A DNA stretch of 14,211 nt from a virus. Made by a program: the position numbers and the translations under genes. The notes below the pieces were generated by a model that worked only from the letters and a program-made list of their open reading frames with translations, was not told where the DNA came from and made no database searches. Shown here one piece after another: positions 2,219-12,514 of the stretch. Numbering within the stretch: position 1 is the stretch's first letter; each line of letters opens with the position of its first letter. The stretch lies in the UHGV virus genome UHGV-0117243; one strand, given 5' to 3'.

Positions 2219-3490
2219 TTACGGATTACCGAAGAACTGACCGCCCATGTGAGGGTTAAAGCACACATATGCAGGAAGTAAGTCGAAGCGCATTTTTTGC
2301 ACGTTGGCATCGCCATCTGCGTATTTATGTACGCGGATGGAGAAACCTTCATATGTTGCAACAGCAGAATCAATACTGTGCAGTTTCGGCAGTGGGATAG
2401 AGCCAAGTCCACAGAAGAACTTGTTATAGAACAGGTTTGGCTTCATTGTCTGGCTAGCAGTGCCTACTACAGATACGGCATCGCCTGCCTCTACCTGACG
2501 ACTTACAGAGTTGTACTGCGGGTTTGTAGTGTCATAAATCGGAACACCAGAAAGCGTAACCGTCACATCGCCACTGCTGTCTGAATTAGCATCAGCAGTA
2601 ACCGTTGCAGTGAAGCTAATTGGTGTGGCTCCGTTATACAACGCCTGTTTGGTCTGCTGTTGCAGCCAGTAGGTATTGGTGAATTTAACCTGATCACCAG
2701 CTTTCAGAAAACCTGTAACGCTGGCTGTCGCTCCGGTCAATGTTACAGTGAACTGGTATGAGTCTTTAACTGCGTTATAGGTAACAGTTGGCTGTGTTTT
2801 GACTGTCAGTGTTCCGCCAAATGCCCCCTGCGTACGAGAGGCAAGCCCATTAGACATCAGTGCGCGAATGCCGCCAAAATTGGTTGGAATCTGCGCATTC
2901 TCCCATGCAGTACGAACCAATTGATCTGAAGCGTGCAAACCAGTCTGCGCATCAGCAAGTCGCTGTGCAGACCATGGATCCATTACAGCATAGTTTTCAC
3001 CTTCATTAACGCCGAGGTCTTTCAGGAAAGATGCCGTCTGCGCAACATCAGACCATTTGGTGATTGGAGTATTGGGGCTACCAAGTGACAACGCACCGTT
3101 ATTCATCATGAAGTGAGCAAGCTCTGTTTCAAGGTCGGTAACGATTCGCTGGCGAACCGGCGCGAGAATTTCTTCCAGTTGGTTAAGCTTGATCGCTTCC
3201 TCCAGTTGCTGATATTCAACAGCAACAGTGATGTAGTTACCTACACGCCCCGTAGCTTTACCTGAGATCAGGTTGTTTTTATTTTGCCCTGAAATATCAC
3301 CAGTGGGAGTACGGAGGGATGAGAATTGATGCGGACGTTTAAAGCTAACGCTATCGCCAGTGCTGGAGTTGATTTCACCTGCCAGCAACTGACGGTCTAC
3401 GGTTTTCGCCAGAACTAAATCTGACATAAAACCCGGAAGGAATTTTTTCAGAACGATTTGACTGACGTTACTGTCGAGATTGTTAGGCAT
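2219..3490 (-). CDS. Major capsid (coat) protein, P22/Sf6 coat family (423 aa)
   Basis: 423-aa ORF directly after the scaffold gene with RBS AAGGAAAAG. Size and position match P22-like coat proteins (Sf6 coat is 423 aa as recalled). Followed by a terminator. Confidence 0.75.
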   Translation of the reverse strand: MPNNLDSNVSQIVLKKFLPGFMSDLVLAKTVDRQLLAGEINSSTGDSVSFKRPHQFSSLRTPTGDISGQNKNNLISGKATGRVGNYITVAVEYQQLEEAIKLNQLEEILAPVRQRIVTDLETELAHFMMNNGALSLGSPNTPITKWSDVAQTASFLKDLGVNEGENYAVMDPWSAQRLADAQTGLHASDQLVRTAWENAQIPTNFGGIRALMSNGLASRTQGAFGGTLTVKTQPTVTYNAVKDSYQFTVTLTGATASVTGFLKAGDQVKFTNTYWLQQQTKQALYNGATPISFTATVTADANSDSSGDVTVTLSGVPIYDTTNPQYNSVSRQVEAGDAVSVVGTASQTMKPNLFYNKFFCGLGSIPLPKLHSIDSAVATYEGFSIRVHKYADGDANVQKMRFDLLPAYVCFNPHMGGQFFGNP

Positions 3491-6528: not shown

Positions 6529-7941
6529 TTACCAACCGGAGGATGAGGGAACGTATATTTCTGTTTCTTCGCGGACCAATGCCGGGCAATGCATACACAT
6601 CATCAGCGCATCAGCCAGGTTAGGAGATGGAATACCGAGCTTCTGCTTCATTTCGACCTTAGTCATAAGCTCCAGCTTCCCGTTATTATTGAATTTGCGC
6701 TGAATCTGCGTCAGTTCTGCAAACAGCTTCTCCAGCATCTTCTCGCCTATCGCTTCTTTGTCGAAACTCAGCATGTCGTCTGGGTCTGCATACTCACCGT
6801 GAACAACCGCCCGATATGTCAGATACAGCCTGTCAGCCAGCGCGTAATAGAATTGTGCTCGCTTATTGCGGAACACATCGCCAATAGTGCGAACGTTGTC
6901 ACCCTGTACGACTTCATCAGCCCATGCTCCGGCCTGATACGGCGCATCTTCATCGAATGGCGATTCGCTGCCCTTGAACATCGTGGCGGTGATTTTCTTG
7001 CCGGAGAACGCTTCCGTTGTCTGTCTGCGTAGGCCCGCACCGACGCCATCACCATCCCACAGGTAATGGTCAGCGCCGTCTTCAATTGCCAGCGAAGTAG
7101 CCCAGTCAGCACCCTCGTTGATGTCCATCAGCAGACCTTCGGCAATGCGCTTAACTACCGAACCGTGACGCGATGCATAACCTTTAGCATCTGGCCCTGT
7201 ATCTGATGGGTCATGCGCAGAGACAACAGCGCCTTTCGCTTTCCATCCGAGTTTCTTGTGCGCATCGGTTGCGGCTTCAAGCCATTCACGTTTGATGATT
7301 GCCATATCACTTGCGCTTACTGGCTCACCAAGCCAGATGTGACGATACAGTGTCGGGTTTCTGCGTTTACACTCTTCCATCTCCAGACGGAGGACTTCAG
7401 GAAAATGCGGGTTGTCGGTGTAGTTCACCGTCAGCAGGCAAATATCATCGGGAGGATTTACGACGAATCGCTGATAGGTATCGTCGAGGATGTTTTTCGG
7501 GTTGAAACTTACCCATATTTCAGAGAACGGCTTACGGATGGTTGGAATCAGGATATCCCACGATTCCTTCGTTACCGCTTCCGCTTCTTCCACCCAGCAG
7601 ATATCAATGCCTTCGAGCGATTTAATCTTCGTCGGGTTGTTTTTGATGCCGTAGAACATGAATTCAGCATTCGTTCCGAGATGACGAATCATGGAACGCT
7701 GAATTTCAAACTCAGCCGAATACCCTTCACGCTCGATGGTATCTTCAAGCAACCGGATTACCGAATCGCTGATACTGTTTTGCAGTTCACGAGCGCAGAG
7801 AATACGCACTGGCTGCCGACGCGCCGCTTCAACAAGCAGCCTCGCAATTGCCCATGACTTACCGCTACCTCGACCGCCTTTGGCGACTTTGTAGCGATGC
7901 GCCTCAATGAACGGTTCAAAGATAGGATTAATCGAGGTCAT
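6529..7941 (-). CDS. terL: Terminase large subunit (470 aa)
   Basis: Walker A motif VAKGGRGSGKS near the N-terminus, 470 aa, overlaps the terS stop (ATGA), directly upstream of portal. Confidence 0.9.
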   Translation of the reverse strand: MTSINPIFEPFIEAHRYKVAKGGRGSGKSWAIARLLVEAARRQPVRILCARELQNSISDSVIRLLEDTIEREGYSAEFEIQRSMIRHLGTNAEFMFYGIKNNPTKIKSLEGIDICWVEEAEAVTKESWDILIPTIRKPFSEIWVSFNPKNILDDTYQRFVVNPPDDICLLTVNYTDNPHFPEVLRLEMEECKRRNPTLYRHIWLGEPVSASDMAIIKREWLEAATDAHKKLGWKAKGAVVSAHDPSDTGPDAKGYASRHGSVVKRIAEGLLMDINEGADWATSLAIEDGADHYLWDGDGVGAGLRRQTTEAFSGKKITATMFKGSESPFDEDAPYQAGAWADEVVQGDNVRTIGDVFRNKRAQFYYALADRLYLTYRAVVHGEYADPDDMLSFDKEAIGEKMLEKLFAELTQIQRKFNNNGKLELMTKVEMKQKLGIPSPNLADALMMCMHCPALVREETEIYVPSSSGW

Positions 7942-8465
7942 TTTCCGAATAGAGTGCTCATCGGTGATGTTTCAATCTGGATTGCGCCGCCGTCTTTGCC
8001 TGTTAGTTCGTGAGAAGCTTGTTCTTTAAACGCCTGAACAGAAACATGCTTACCAAGAAGTTCGAGGTTTTTAACCTTATCAGGCCATTTGATTTTCTTC
8101 AGGAGTGCGGCGCTATCTGCGGATGCCATCTCCACGACATCCATTCCTGATAACGTTGTGCGCCATACCTTAGGCCAGTCTTTAATGGGTTTTAGCTCAC
8201 CGTTTTGCAGGAGAATGTCAAGCACATCCATCTGGTCGATTTCAATAAGGCGATTAAGTACATATTCTGCATTAATACCAACAAGATCATTGCGTTGTGC
8301 TTTCAGTTCGGCGATTCTGAGTTGTATGTCAGGTTTTGACATGTTTTCGGACGCAGTACGGTTGGCTGTTTTTGCGCTGTACCCCGCCCGAATAGCCGCT
8401 TGCGTGGCGTTTAAATCGATGAGGTACTCGCGACAGAACATTTCTTGCTTGTCGGTGAGTGCCAT
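7938..8465 (-). CDS. terS: Terminase small subunit (175 aa)
   Basis: N-terminus MALTDKQEMFCREYLIDLNATQAAIRAGYS is a typical phage small-terminase HTH region. Translationally coupled to terL. RBS AAAGGTAA. Confidence 0.8.
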   Translation of the reverse strand: MALTDKQEMFCREYLIDLNATQAAIRAGYSAKTANRTASENMSKPDIQLRIAELKAQRNDLVGINAEYVLNRLIEIDQMDVLDILLQNGELKPIKDWPKVWRTTLSGMDVVEMASADSAALLKKIKWPDKVKNLELLGKHVSVQAFKEQASHELTGKDGGAIQIETSPMSTLFGK

Positions 8466-8489
8466 TTAATTACCTTTGGGAGATGCCCA

Positions 8490-9023
8490 ATGAGTTTAGA
8501 AAAATTACTAATCAAAAACAGAAAGTGCGGTTCATGCTCTGTGTGCTGCACTTCGCTACGAATTGAACAGCCAACGTTAAAAAAGTTGGCTGACATCCCA
8601 TGCCAGCACCTTAAACATCAGGGAGGATGTGCAATTTATGATGAACGCCCTTCTGTTTGCCGCACTTGGTATTGCGGATGGCGAATTCTGGATATAGGAC
8701 CAGAGATGCGTCCTGATCGGAGTGGAGTTCTAATCCGTTATGATGGATCATCACTCTGCTTTCAACCCGTAGACAAAAACCGCGTATCTGCTTTGATCGA
8801 ACCAGAGCCTCTGCGAATTTTGGGTGGCCTGATAGATCAAGGTATGAAAGTGGAAATATCGGTTCCAACAAAGGAAGGGTATTGCTCAGCCAATATTAAT
8901 GTCACTGAGCATATGTCAGAGGTTGTAAAAAGCAGAGAGTATGTAAAAATGCGTTCGGCTCTTTTGGCGCTCATTCAATTCGCATCACGAGCAAAGACAG
9001 ATCCAGTAGAACCGCTGGAATGA
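8490..9023 (+). CDS. YkgJ/UPF0153-family cysteine-cluster protein (CxxCxxCC putative Zn/Fe-binding domain), 177 aa; accessory (moron) gene on the opposite strand
   Basis: Motif CGSCSVCC followed by ..PCQHL..GGCAIYDERPSVCRTWYCGW.., characteristic of the CxxCxxCC family. RBS GGGAGA 7 nt before ATG at 8490. Own rho-independent terminator immediately downstream. Start chosen at MSLEKL rather than the upstream Met, which would overlap terS. Confidence 0.65.
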   Translation: MSLEKLLIKNRKCGSCSVCCTSLRIEQPTLKKLADIPCQHLKHQGGCAIYDERPSVCRTWYCGWRILDIGPEMRPDRSGVLIRYDGSSLCFQPVDKNRVSALIEPEPLRILGGLIDQGMKVEISVPTKEGYCSANINVTEHMSEVVKSREYVKMRSALLALIQFASRAKTDPVEPLE

Positions 9024-9031
9024 TTATTCAG

Positions 9032-9055
9032 GTCGGGTTTAACACCCGGCTTTTT
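9032..9055 (+). terminator. Rho-independent terminator of the YkgJ-like gene
   Basis: 7-bp stem (gtcgggt / acccggc) with 5-nt loop followed by TTTTT on the plus strand, 9 nt after the stop codon. Not followed by a T-run on the minus strand, so unidirectional. Confidence 0.7.
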
Positions 9056-9298
9056 GAAATGGTACTCATTGCATCGCTTAATTTTCTTTAAATGAGAAAC
9101 GTCCTCTTTCTTAACTGAAGACATTAATTCTTTATCAGTTCGAACATTCATTTTTTTCCATTGCATGATCTTCGCTAATTTATAATTTGCAGTTCTTCTG
9201 CAACGATTTGTTATGTGATAGAATATCTCTCTTCGTTTGGCGGTCCATTACTTCAATATCGTGATCATTAAGGTATAGGCTTTGTAATGCCTACATGG

Positions 9299-9778
9299 TT
9301 AAATGATTTGCCAGTCTTCAGCCATCAGGTCGCCAATGGATGGAGCCCATGTAGCAAGGCGGTTCTGTGAGTTTTTCAATACAAGCGTGTCATTGAAAGT
9401 TGGCTCGCCAACATATTCGCCAAAGCCATAACCCAACGCAGACGCTAATTTTTCTCCTTTCACGAGATAAACAAACTGATCTTTCCCATTCCATCCTGCC
9501 CGCTGCAAACTTTTGCCCTGTTTTAACGCTTCCATGGCAAGGCCGAAACTTAGCCCTGATACCGGACGATAAGCCTTTTCGAATACTTCTTTTGGACTCC
9601 AGCTAACGTAGCCATCAAAGCGATCGGTGTTAGGTTTTCCGCCATCCAGATATTCAACCAGATAGCCTTCGTCCTCGCCGTTTTCTCCGGCAGGAAGCTG
9701 CCAGCCACGAAAATCGTTATATGCCTGTCTCGTCATCGGAAAGGCGTTAATCAGTTTTACGCCAATATGTTGGGTCAT
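9299..9778 (-). CDS. Hypothetical two-domain protein (160 aa) with C-terminal DUF2829-like domain
   Basis: C-terminal half ..AMEALKQGKSLQRAGWNGKDQFV..LATWAPSIGDLMAEDWQII fits the DUF2829 pattern as recalled (..GWNGK.. and ..AEDW.. motifs). N-terminal half unrecognised. Start set at Met42 of the 200-aa ORF because the upstream codons run through a terminator hairpin. RBS weak (AGGT). Confidence 0.55.
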   Translation of the reverse strand: MTQHIGVKLINAFPMTRQAYNDFRGWQLPAGENGEDEGYLVEYLDGGKPNTDRFDGYVSWSPKEVFEKAYRPVSGLSFGLAMEALKQGKSLQRAGWNGKDQFVYLVKGEKLASALGYGFGEYVGEPTFNDTLVLKNSQNRLATWAPSIGDLMAEDWQII

Positions 9779-9800
9779 AAAATTACCTATGGAGTTGGGA

Positions 9801-9825
9801 ATAAAAAAACCCCGCGAATGCGAGG
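9801..9825 (-). terminator. Rho-independent terminator between Rz and the DUF2829-like gene
   Basis: On the minus-strand transcript: cctcgc-attc-gcgggg hairpin (6 bp including one G-U pair) followed by UUUUUUUAUU. On the plus strand the same stem carries a C-A mismatch and is preceded, not followed, by the A/T run, so it is strand-specific. Confidence 0.65.
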
Positions 9826-10000
9826 CTAAATCCTGGTGTTTGTGATGACTGGCTCTTATCTCAACGCAGCCCCTTACCGCGCGCCAGATGCTCAATATCA
9901 AGCATCAGCAATGAGATGTTTAATCTGGATTCACTCCAGAAGTGATCACCACCCTGTCTACAGAGCCAGATGTGAAGGATGATGAGTAGAATTATCGCTA

Positions 10001-10438
10001 TCATCGAAGGCATTGCGTCCTGATGTATTCCTGCAGGTAGTTAACCTGCGCGGTTATCCTGTCGATTCCGCTTCGGAGACGGTAATAATTAAGTTCAGCA
10101 TCTGCTGTAAGTCTTGGGCTTTCTCCATCGCCCATGCTGCTGGCTCCGGTCGTTGACTTTGCACAGGTGGCGGCGACTTGCAGGCGCTTACGACCAGCAG
10201 AAACATCAGCACGGAGACTTTCAATAGTCGCGTTAGCATCAGCAAGCTCCTTTGTGTATCTGGCGTCGAGTTCTGCTACGTCACGTTGACGCTTCTGCAT
10301 ATCAGCGATGATGGATGTGGCTTTATCTCGCTGTTCTTTGTAGGCGATGGCGTTATCACGGTAATGATTAACAGCCCATGACAGGCAAACGATGATGCAA
10401 ATAACCAGAGCGGAGATAATCGCGGTTACTCTGCTCAT
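10001..10438 (-). CDS. Rz: Rz spanin (inner-membrane subunit, i-spanin), 145 aa
   Basis: N-terminus [31 protein letters not shown] matches lambda Rz; the C-terminal half diverges. Start overlaps the R stop. Confidence 0.8.
10054..10245 (-). CDS. Rz1: Rz1 o-spanin lipoprotein embedded in the +1 frame of Rz
   Basis: ORF nested wholly inside Rz in another frame. Hydrophobic leader ending in a lipobox-like VSAC, then a Pro-rich segment ([12 protein letters not shown]), as in lambda Rz1. Exact start uncertain. Confidence 0.6.
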
Positions 10439-10911
10439 ACCTCAATCTCTCTGACCGTTCCGCCAGCCTCTTTGAATTTTGCAATCAGGCTGTCAGCCTT
10501 ATGCTCGAACTGACCATAACCAGCGCCAGGCAGTGAAGCCCAGATATTGCTGCAACGGTCGATAGCCTGACGAATATCACCGCGATCAATCATCGGTAAA
10601 GCGCCACGCTCTTTAATCTGCTGTAGTGCAACAGCGTCCTGGCTTTTCGGAGAGAAGTCTTTCAGCCCAAGCTGCTTACGGTATGCATCCCACCAACGGG
10701 AAAGAAGCTGGTAACGTCCGGCTGCTGTTGATTTGAGTTTGGGGTTTAGCGTGACAAGTTTGCGAGGGTGATCTGAGTAATCAGTGAATAGCTCTCCGCC
10801 TACAATGACGTCATAACCATGATTTCTGGTTTTCTGCCGTCCGTTATCAGTTCCCTCTGACCACGCCAGCATATCGAGGAACGCCTTACGTTGATTATTG
10901 ATTTCCACCAT
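10435..10911 (-). CDS. R: Endolysin, lambda R-type lytic transglycosylase (158 aa)
   Basis: Translation [39 protein letters not shown].. is collinear with lambda R over the full 158 aa (from memory). Overlaps the S stop as in lambda. Confidence 0.95.
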
Positions 10912-11218
10912 CTTCTACTCCGGCTTTTTTAGCAGCGAAGCGTTTGATAAGCGAACCAATCGAGTCAGTACCGATGTAGCCGATGAACACGCTCGTTATA
11001 TAAGCGAGATTGCTACTTAGTCCGGCGAAGTCGAGAAGGTCACGAATGAACCAGGCGATAATGGCGCACATCGTTGCGTCGATTACTGTTTTTGTAAACG
11101 CACCGCCATTATATCTGCCGCGAAGGTACGCCATTGCAAACGCAAGGATTGCCCCGATGCCTTGTTCCTTTGCCGCGAGAATGGCGGCTAACAGGTCATG
11201 TTTTTCTGGCATCTTCAT
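10895..11218 (-). CDS. S: Holin/antiholin, lambda S (S107/S105 dual-start), 107 aa
   Basis: [34 protein letters not shown].. matches lambda S, including the Met1-Lys2-Met3 dual-start motif. Confidence 0.95.
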
Positions 11219-11460: not shown

Positions 11461-11536
11461 TGGTGCTGGTTAACGGACTTGAACCGCTACCCATTCGCTT
11501 ACAAGGCGACTGCTCTACCATTGGAGCTAAACCAGC
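11461..11536 (-). tRNA. tRNA-Thr (anticodon UGU), 76 nt with encoded CCA
   Basis: Manual fold of the minus-strand sequence: perfect 7-bp acceptor stem (gctggtt/aaccagc), 4-bp D stem with GG in the loop, anticodon loop cuUGUaa, 5-nt variable loop, T arm agcgg-TTCAAGT-ccgtt, discriminator A, CCA. One mismatch at the base of the anticodon stem. Confidence 0.65.
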
Positions 11537-11541
11537 ATATT

Positions 11542-11616
11542 TGGCGGGACAGCGTGGACTCGAACCACGATAAGAAGGTTAACAGCCTTCCGTAATGACC
11601 TTTATACGACTGACCC
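11542..11616 (-). tRNA. tRNA-Asn-like (anticodon GUU), 75 nt with encoded CCA; possibly partly degenerate
   Basis: Anticodon stem-loop gaagg-CUGUUAA-ccttc and T arm cgtgg-TTCGAGT-ccacg resemble E. coli tRNA-Asn. The acceptor stem has a T-T mismatch at pair 4 and the D stem has only 3 pairs. Begins 3 nt after the tR' U-run. Confidence 0.5.
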
Positions 11617-11890: not shown

Positions 11891-12514
11891 CTAACGTGTG
11901 ACCGCGTTCAAAATGTTGTCTGCGATTGACTCTTCTTTGTGGCATTGCACCACCAGAGCGTCATACAGCGGCTTAACAGTGCGTGACCAGGTGGGTTGAG
12001 TAAGGTTTGGGATTAGCATCGTTACAGCGCGATATGCGGCGCTTGCTGGCATCCTTGAATAGCCGACACCTTTGCATCTTCCGCACTCTTTCTCGACAAC
12101 TCTCCCCCACAGCTCTGTTTTTGCTATATCAACCGCACGGCCTGTACCGTGGCAATCTCTGCATCTTGCACCCGGCGTCGCGGCACTACGGCAATAATCC
12201 GCATAAGCGAATGTTGCGAGAACTTGCAGTACCTTTGCCTTAGTATTTCCTTCAAGCTTTGCCACACCACGGTATTTCCCCGATACCTTGTGTGCAAATT
12301 GCATCAGATAGTTGATAGCCTTTTGTTTGTCGTTCTGGCTGAGTTCGTGCTTACCACAGAATGCAGCCATTCCGAATCCGGCTTGTGATTGCGCCATCCC
12401 CATAGCAGCCATCACATCAGTACCGGAAAGAGAGTCAGAAGCCGTAGCCCGTGGTGAGTCGCTCATCATCGGGCTTTTTGGCGAATGAAATTTAGCTACG
12501 CTTTCGAGTCTCAT
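11891..12514 (-). CDS. Q: Late gene antiterminator Q (207 aa)
   Basis: [48 protein letters not shown].. matches lambda Q in sequence and length. Start overlaps the NinI stop (ATGA). Confidence 0.95.

Follow-up and report, generated by a model that had tools for sequence, protein, structure and literature searches.

Tad2 homologues, for which crystal structures and in vivo tests exist, variously sequester 3'cADPR, His-ADPR, N7-cADPR, cyclic dinucleotides, or cUMP/cCMP. Two further families of phage sponges are relevant to the present work, namely the anti-CBASS family Acb4 (PF13876) and the Sequestin family (PF21825), which was discovered through its fusion to Tad2 and Acb4. Within the CxxCxxCC superfamily, just two relatives have been characterised: FliB, a flagellin lysine methyltransferase that contains a [4Fe-4S] cluster and eight conserved cysteines, and DpdM (DUF3109), a preQ1 methyltransferase. 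On the lambda map, the moron bor lies between the lysis and packaging genes, in reverse orientation. Here, we compare these systems with the interval between Rz and terS in the virus genome UHGV-0117243 (14,211 nucleotides; this whole stretch of DNA is referred to as the window), which contains a Tad2-like gene on the strand of the late operon and, on the opposite strand, a ykgJ-like gene coding for a cysteine-cluster protein.

The window belongs to a P22/Sf6-like (Lederbergvirus-type) prophage with the late genes on the minus strand, on which the interval is bounded by the end of Rz (10001) and the start of terS (8465). The 1535 bp between them match the layout given by the original prediction, which was made from the letters of the window and postulated about 1.5 kb of cargo with two genes in opposite orientations. 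Its proposal of an accessory slot with anti-defence cargo also holds, inasmuch as one of the genes belongs to the Tad2 family and the other resides in a bor-type position in all eight contexts analysed. On the other hand, its statement that neither protein family has an established function is incorrect for DUF2829, since this family corresponds to the Tad2 sponges; the product of one of the genes is thus an annotated phage protein with a known role. We consider it very probable that the interval is a mosaic joint, in which a post-lysis Tad2 slot and a mobile cassette meet as two independent accessory modules, and not a single system.

Relationship of the two genes

Among 5426 complete E. coli genomes, the Tad2-like allele of the window is present in 45 and the cassette with the ykgJ-like gene in five. 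In HK97-like, lambda-Nu1 and other backbones, the cassette is not accompanied by a Tad2 gene, and the Tad2-like gene usually has neighbours other than the cassette. The homology of the window to other Tad2-carrying prophages ends at approximately 9275 (a break in the megablast alignment at query position 876), and its homology to other copies of the cassette ends at 9240. Because each gene occurs without the other and these breakpoints lie between them, the two genes do not constitute a unit, and the comparison of synteny, proposed originally as a way to learn if they travel together, indicates that they do not. The idea of one undescribed two-gene defence or anti-defence system, carried as a unit, appears to us extremely improbable. 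The two genes are indeed adjacent and convergent in the window, in five E. coli genomes and in one Shigella episome, but all these copies represent the same phage, with at least 99.6% identity. Moreover, the family of one of the genes (Tad2) acts alone, and the separate occurrences and the breakpoints described above already contradict the idea at the level of synteny, which also makes a complex of the two proteins less plausible.

The Shigella episome is the 41,686-bp circular "plasmid" NZ_CP012733.1 of Shigella flexneri 1a strain 0228, which contains identical Rz and Tad2-like accessions and in which the ykgJ-like gene is split into three frame-shifted pieces. Based on its size and content, it looks like the circular genome of the phage present in the window rather than a plasmid.

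The accession of TerL (WP_000200764.1) is identical in prophages with either arrangement, and terS and the genes upstream of it differ. It can be observed that the same TerL is accompanied by two unrelated small subunits, either of the Terminase_2 type (175 amino acids) or of the Sf6 type (141 amino acids), as seen in the window and in the loci L002 and L003; judging by these sequences, one TerL apparently works with different small subunits. The history of the locus is likely to have involved one recombination, with terS marking the left edge of the replaced module. In this event, the Acb4-family gene, the DUF2560 gene and the Sf6-type terS found in the relatives would have been replaced by the cassette and the terS of the Terminase_2 type.

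The late-strand gene and the post-lysis slot

The mechanical open reading frame (ORF) of the late-strand gene covers positions 9299-9901 and begins with a TTG codon at 9901, which is not the start; the ATG at 9778 is the actual initiation codon, in agreement with the RefSeq annotation in identical prophages, and the product comprises 159 amino acids. As originally predicted, the protein consists of two domains, a DUF2829-like one (amino acids 75-159, encoded together with the stop codon by positions 9299-9556 on the minus strand) and an N-terminal one (amino acids 1-74, positions 9557-9778, minus strand), which we call the N-domain. The former matches the Pfam family PF11195 with 76.5 bits (cut-off 25, E = 2.4e-21); this family, previously DUF2829, has been renamed by Pfam to "Thoeris anti-defense 2-like". 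Of the two profile matches anticipated originally, this one was obtained and the other, of PF03692 to the plus-strand protein, stayed below its threshold. Residues 75-159 can be aligned end to end with the Tad2 protein Gp34.65 of phage SPO1 (8SME and 8WJE in the PDB; E = 1e-25), with identity at 40 of the 84 positions (48%), and ModTad2 (9EIB) matches the protein with E = 2e-18. From this homology we conclude that the late-strand gene adds a new member to Tad2, an already described family of anti-immunity sponges in phages.

According to the structure paper, the main contacts of SPO1 Tad2 to 1''-3' gcADPR are made by W25, N26, W73 and D79, and the adenine-side and water-coordinating residues are I63, T65, D67, H71, S76 and T78. 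In the protein encoded in the window, W25, N26, W73, S76 and D79 are retained as W96, N97, W144, S147 and D150. On the other side of the balance, five second-shell ligand residues differ from those of SPO1 (I63L, T65N, D67Q, H71A and T78G). The residue pattern of the pocket fits a sponge, and the ligand is uncertain, both because of these five replacements and since the members of the family vary in specificity. The mechanism is well supported by the strong homology: the Tad2 domain is predicted to be a sponge for signalling nucleotides of TIR/cGAS-type immunity, which by analogy to its homologues would form tetramers and bind the immune signals in pockets between the subunits. The signals sequestered may include 3'cADPR made by the TIR proteins of Thoeris and possibly related molecules, and if the domain acts as the rest of its family does, the effector of the host would then never be activated.

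The module that comprises the late-strand gene (positions 9299-10013, late strand) would correspond to a post-lysis anti-defence slot of Sf6/P22-like phages. The original prediction held that phages of this type run more or less directly from Rz into terS, but in the 55989 prophage, in Huey and in Kapi1 this interval contains three to four accessory genes, arranged as Rz, a small ORF, the gene for the N-domain fused to Tad2, two to three small genes, and terS. In the 55989 prophage and in Huey, the Tad2-like genes have Acb4 and DUF2560 neighbours, and the gene that directly follows codes for a PF13876 protein (L003:2411-2791 and L001:382-762, both on the minus strand), labelled "Gp49 family" in RefSeq and "anti-CRISPR" in the annotation of Huey. 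Because an Acb4-family gene follows the Tad2-like gene, the slot is, as far as can be judged from sequence homology, an anti-defence locus with a Tad2-like and then an Acb4-like gene. Comparison of the window (9299-9556, minus strand) with L004:2522-3043, L001:997-1497 and L003:3025-3504 reveals that P22/Sf6-like phages hardly differ in the N-domain and at either end of the Tad2 domain, and that the core of Tad2 is represented by at least three very different alleles, one of which (in Kapi1) carries an insertion of 15 residues. This pattern looks like a cassette-like recombinational swapping of the ligand pocket.

Kapi1 also provides a clue to expression. Kapi1_043, a putative Tad2-like gene, is the top-expressed gene of the Kapi1 prophage in lysogens under all conditions analysed by RNA-seq (PMC12922286). 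The 240 nucleotides upstream of the Tad2-like gene in the window exhibit 97-99% identity to Kapi1, and by analogy this gene may also be expressed in lysogens. This analogy is weakened by the fact that the Tad2 core of Kapi1_043 differs from that of the window and that a promoter of Kapi1_043 was not found either; our promoter scans for the Tad2-like gene, including the alignment of its upstream region with Kapi1, revealed nothing convincing. The original prediction ascribed prophage expression to the plus-strand gene, but the transcript data from lysogens point to the homologue of the late-strand one.

Two further elements of the module were omitted from the original prediction. A small conserved ORF of 50 amino acids (9861-10013, minus strand), taken from the ORF list, overlaps the end of Rz; it is annotated as "hypothetical protein" by RefSeq in identical prophages, corresponds to Kapi1_042 in phage Kapi1, and at the DNA level displays 97-99% identity in Kapi1, Huey and the 55989 prophage. 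It has no match in Pfam or PADLOC, and it is a part of the widely shared post-lysis module. The other element is an intrinsic terminator with an 8-bp stem and a run of seven U (9808-9827, minus strand), detected by the terminator scan downstream of the lysis genes and approximately 30 nucleotides upstream of the ATG of the Tad2-like gene. Its folding energy is -13.3 kcal/mol (z = -3.19; none of the 200 shuffled sequences folds as well), and it is conserved in Kapi1, Huey and 55989. Read-through of this terminator by Q-modified polymerase would be expected. A very similar hairpin (GCCTCGCAT..CGCGGGG followed by a run of T) was observed after the lysis genes of two loci with unrelated lambdoid backbones, L005 (approximately 6750-6785) and L007 (approximately 3378-3410), where the cassette adjoins it immediately with its right end.

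The plus-strand cassette and its surroundings

The second module (positions 8477-9240, plus strand, 764 bp) would be a horizontally mobile single-gene cassette, which occupies the position of lambda bor and shares its orientation. In blastn comparisons, this block displays 91% identity to its counterparts in HK97-like and lambda-Nu1-type prophages (L005 and L007). It comprises a ribosome-binding site, the ykgJ-like ORF, a terminator and an AT-rich 3' tail of approximately 190 nucleotides that is 86-87% identical to L005 and L007, and its GC content is 41.6%. Within the tail, a block of approximately 60 nucleotides (in 9140-9200) is almost perfectly conserved between the copies, despite the synonymous divergence (dS) of 0.24 in the gene itself; it has no match in Rfam and no convincing promoter. 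A search of Rfam with the region 8300-10100 likewise yielded no match.

In all eight enterobacterial contexts that were examined, found in E. coli, Citrobacter, Rahnella, Providencia and metagenomic contigs, the gene falls in the interval that separates the lysis genes from the terminase genes and is oriented against the late operon, and the backbones are of the HK97-like, lambda-Nu1 and Terminase_2 types. Among 50,697 phage records, none contains a ykgJ-like gene, beyond a cysteine domain of a cyanophage.

The gene for the cysteine-cluster protein (8490-9023, plus strand, 177 amino acids) is antisense to the late operon and is preceded by the ribosome-binding site GGGAG. A terminator-like hairpin with an 8-bp stem and a 5-nucleotide loop (9031-9051, extended to 9055 by the U-run; plus strand) begins 8 nucleotides past the stop codon and is followed by UUUU, so that the claim that the gene possesses its own ribosome-binding site and terminator is borne out. 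The fold of the region 9020-9066 has an energy of -13.7 kcal/mol (z = -2.33) and is kept in the copies from L005 and L007; a simple terminator scan did not flag the hairpin. The spacer between the two genes (9024-9298) is AT-rich, as claimed originally, with a GC content of 34.9% versus 48.1% for the whole window, but its length is 275 bp instead of approximately 240 bp. Its part from 9241 to 9298 constitutes the junction between the Tad2 module and the cassette.

The protein contains eight conserved cysteines (13, 16, 19, 20, 38, 47, 57 and 62), four of which form the motif C13xxC16xxC19C20, kept in at least 90% of the homologues. In the motif GCxIYxxRPxxC, G46, C47, Y50, R53 and C57 are invariant and P54 nearly so. 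The eight cysteines and several motifs persist across homologues down to 24% identity. The assignment to the YkgJ family, as made originally, stands with regard to the CxxCxxCC motif, but the match to PF03692 is sub-threshold (21.1 bits versus the cut-off of 23) and supports only a call at the level of the superfamily; among 30 homologues, 15 match PF03692 at E <= 0.01, likewise below the threshold, with the best E-value of 2e-4. No match was found in NCBIfam. A point that speaks against the assignment is that the hhalign comparison with E. coli YkgJ aligned solely the motif block, i.e. 15 columns, with 72% probability. Judging from its sequence, the protein may therefore be placed loosely in the CxxCxxCC/YkgJ superfamily, as a divergent member. 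The AlphaFold2 model (mean pLDDT 92.5) and the alignment of homologues indicate an N-terminal CxxCxxCC-type domain followed by a family-specific alpha/beta C-terminal domain. Sequence and profile searches of the PDB returned nothing meaningful, neither a matching solved fold nor a structure from the superfamily, and the matches among the BFVD structures are all to uncharacterised viral proteins.

Compared with the copies that share 93% DNA identity, the ratio of non-synonymous to synonymous substitution rates (dN/dS) of the plus-strand gene is 0.127, with dS of 0.24; hence it is a real, constrained gene under purifying selection. Its GC content at third codon positions, a check of the kind suggested originally, is 0.37 versus 0.45-0.55 in the other genes of the phage, and the composition of the gene looks foreign. 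An exhaustive profile search yielded 232 cluster representatives at E <= 1e-30 and 4982 at E <= 1e-10. The reading of the cassette proposed below is weakened by the location of the distant homologues that we examined, which are chromosomal and belong to unrelated metabolic operons, some of them apparently operonic with hydantoinase/oxoprolinase or with an AMP-dependent ligase.

The eight cysteines and the biochemistry of FliB suggest that the protein binds a metal, and the cysteine cluster, which is under purifying selection, would coordinate either Fe-S or Zn. With low confidence, and by analogy to FliB and DpdM, we propose that it may be a metal-cluster-dependent modifying enzyme or a redox accessory from which the lysogen profits; a placement similar to that of bor is in agreement with this.

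We found no conserved partner of the gene. Its left-hand neighbours (200-218 amino acids) belong to three unrelated families, and as partners they were rejected. The same applies to the minus-strand ORF 8975-9166 (63 amino acids), which partly coincides with the ykgJ-like gene at its 3' end: a similarly placed ORF was called at four loci, but its sequences are unrelated in the divergent copies (19-25% identity), so that a genuine gene is improbable. In L009 and L016, late-strand glycosyltransferase genes phrog_1579 (approximately 485 amino acids) and phrog_854 (approximately 200 amino acids) flank the ykgJ-like gene. The corresponding loci are L009:3790-5840, L016:439-3283 and L019:5279-8124; in L016 the gene lies between the phrog_1579/phrog_854 pair, and in L019 between size-matched neighbours of 487 and 198 amino acids. 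The flanks of L016 and L019 are common, which indicates one event, and the five other contexts lack glycosyltransferases. We treat this adjacency (two lineages, three loci) as co-occurrence in a hot-spot, and we consider a functional link to these genes a less likely rival reading.

A terminator-like hairpin with a run of T was observed on the late strand (8589-8607, minus strand) inside the reading frame of the ykgJ-like gene and a short distance upstream of terS; transcripts that are not antiterminated might end there before they reach terS. The terS gene itself (7938-8465, minus strand) is of the Terminase_2 type (PF03592, 135 bits) and is followed by terL (6529-7941) and, at lower coordinates further downstream in the late operon, by the genes for portal, scaffold and coat. 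On the other side of the interval, the late-gene context comprises Q (11891-12514), the holin gene (10895-11218), the lysozyme gene (10435-10911) and Rz (10001-10438, minus strand). Genes for tRNA-Thr(TGT) and tRNA-Asn(GTT) are located between Q and the holin gene (11461-11616, minus strand), as they are in Kapi1; in the otherwise near-identical GPEC1405 prophage, a gene for an HNH endonuclease replaces the tRNAs in this interval.

Alternative readings and comparison with described systems

In the late-strand protein, the N-domain (amino acids 1-74) forms a small module rich in beta structure and has no family match in Pfam. Its fusion with Tad2 is common (2928 homologues, with more than 100 full-length ones at 54-99% identity, including that of Pseudomonas phage Skulduggery), it occurs also as a standalone protein of 73-90 amino acids, e.g. 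in the N4-like Erwinia phage phiEaP8, and elsewhere it is fused to Sequestin (PF21825) or to DUF4164. We rejected its identification as Acb4 (PF13876, Phage_gp49_66): Pfam yields no match, and an hhalign comparison with the Acb4-family protein encoded by the 55989 prophage gives a probability of 0.3%. We also judge it unlikely to be Lockin, which has been described as elongated, hexamer-forming and absent from the INPHARED phages, in which the N-domain is present. It is tempting to regard the whole protein as a dual sponge, in which the N-domain would be a second, undescribed signal-binding module and not a mere oligomerisation or solubility tag. Its standalone occurrence in phages, its fusions to two known sponge families, the precedent of Sequestin, which was discovered by the same logic, and its near-invariance among P22-like phages in which the Tad2 core is swapped all argue for this possibility, but comparisons of structure and sequence with the known sponges gave no link, and DUF4164, the other fusion partner, has no known sponge role. 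On balance, we find the dual sponge conceivable and somewhat doubtful. By the logic of fusions, the N-domain can nonetheless reasonably be proposed as a candidate new sponge or an adaptor, and as a small unannotated domain that accompanies two sponge families it offers a cheaply testable lead.

For the cassette, the main alternative concerns expression. The start codons of the plus-strand gene and of terS are divergent and only 24 nucleotides apart; the homology to other copies begins 10-13 nucleotides before the ATG, i.e. at the ribosome-binding site, and L005 and L007 share approximately 85 nucleotides more upstream, which are lacking in the window. Our scans of the 260 nucleotides upstream of the gene revealed no sigma-70-like promoter, which, together with the start of the conserved cassette at the ribosome-binding site, lends no support to the original prediction that the gene is expressed from the prophage. 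All these features, as well as the frameshifts of the Shigella copy in its assembly, would be explained if the cassette in this phage were a transcriptionally silent passenger that arrived with the Terminase_2 terS and lost its native 5' region. However, none of the five E. coli copies has a disrupted ORF, and weak or activator-dependent promoters would escape the scans. Furthermore, E. coli CFS3292 carries a different plus-strand ORF of 151 amino acids (L021:3969-4424, plus strand; no match in Pfam or PADLOC), which starts 22 nucleotides from the start codon of a terS of the same Terminase_2 type, 93% identical to that of the window. The terS of this type thus seems to carry a slot for reverse-oriented cargo, and the similar distance suggests that the slot supports expression. 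We regard a silent passenger as unlikely, and even less likely, in our opinion, is that the ykgJ-like cassette is a single-gene, prophage-expressed determinant of anti-phage defence or superinfection exclusion. The latter function would agree with the reverse orientation that the gene retains in unrelated prophages at a position known for morons, with its own terminator, foreign composition and purifying selection, and with its location next to an anti-defence gene. On the other hand, PADLOC-DB v2 contains no match for the proteins of the window or for three diverse homologues of the plus-strand protein, domain and structure searches found no nuclease, NTPase, TIR or membrane-effector domain in it, most members of the family reside on chromosomes in metabolic operons, and the promoter scans of the window were negative.

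The interpretation of the interval as a joint of two independent modules leaves the orphan cassette and the unannotated N-domain as the remaining leads, and neither is yet evidence for a new kind of system. In the boldest version, to which we assign a small chance, the cassette would encode an undescribed lysogen-expressed Fe-S/Zn single-gene function (modification of a macromolecule of the host or of a phage, or a block of superinfection), moved repeatedly into the lysis-terminase slot of unrelated lambdoid phages, and the N-domain would separately represent a new family of immune-signal sponges. In any case, a rare, positionally conserved and backwards-facing cysteine-cluster gene, the superfamily of which is biologically very poorly understood, is cheap to test. 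The identification of the late-strand gene is also of use for annotation: in RefSeq, such genes still bear the labels "DUF2829" or "Gp49 family", and "anti-CRISPR" appears in some annotations of phages.

When compared with the described systems, the Tad2 family is extended by a member from an enterobacterial prophage, the pocket of which has swappable alleles. It differs from SPO1 Gp34.65 (Tad2 has also been deposited as AcrIIA7/HgmTad2) by the additional N-terminal domain of 74 amino acids and by its origin from a temperate enterobacterial phage, whereas SPO1 is a virulent phage of Bacillus. A counterpart, Kapi1_043 of phage vB_EcoP_Kapi1, is situated at the equivalent place, following Rz and the small ORF, and shares an identical N-domain and both conserved ends of Tad2, but the central part of Tad2 is another allele, the downstream neighbours differ and the ykgJ-like cassette is absent. 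Like the fused phage sponges Acb4-Tad2 and Tad2-Sequestin (Tal et al. 2025, PMC12265669), the protein joins Tad2 to a second small phage domain, which in this case also occurs alone and fused to Sequestin; however, this putative module is neither Acb4/PF13876 nor PF21825 and has no Pfam family. The plus-strand protein shares the CxxCxxCC and GCxIYxxRPxxCR motifs with the CxxCxxCC/YkgJ superfamily (PF03692), from which it is set apart by the score below the Pfam threshold and by the family-specific C-terminal domain; FliB, for which eight conserved cysteines have likewise been reported, and DpdM are linked to it through the literature. With lambda bor, the cassette shares the slot, the orientation against the late operon, the single gene and the possession of its own terminator, and its placement recurs in unrelated lambdoid prophages; however, bor encodes a lipoprotein, and the product of the cassette is an unrelated, cytoplasmic cysteine-cluster protein.

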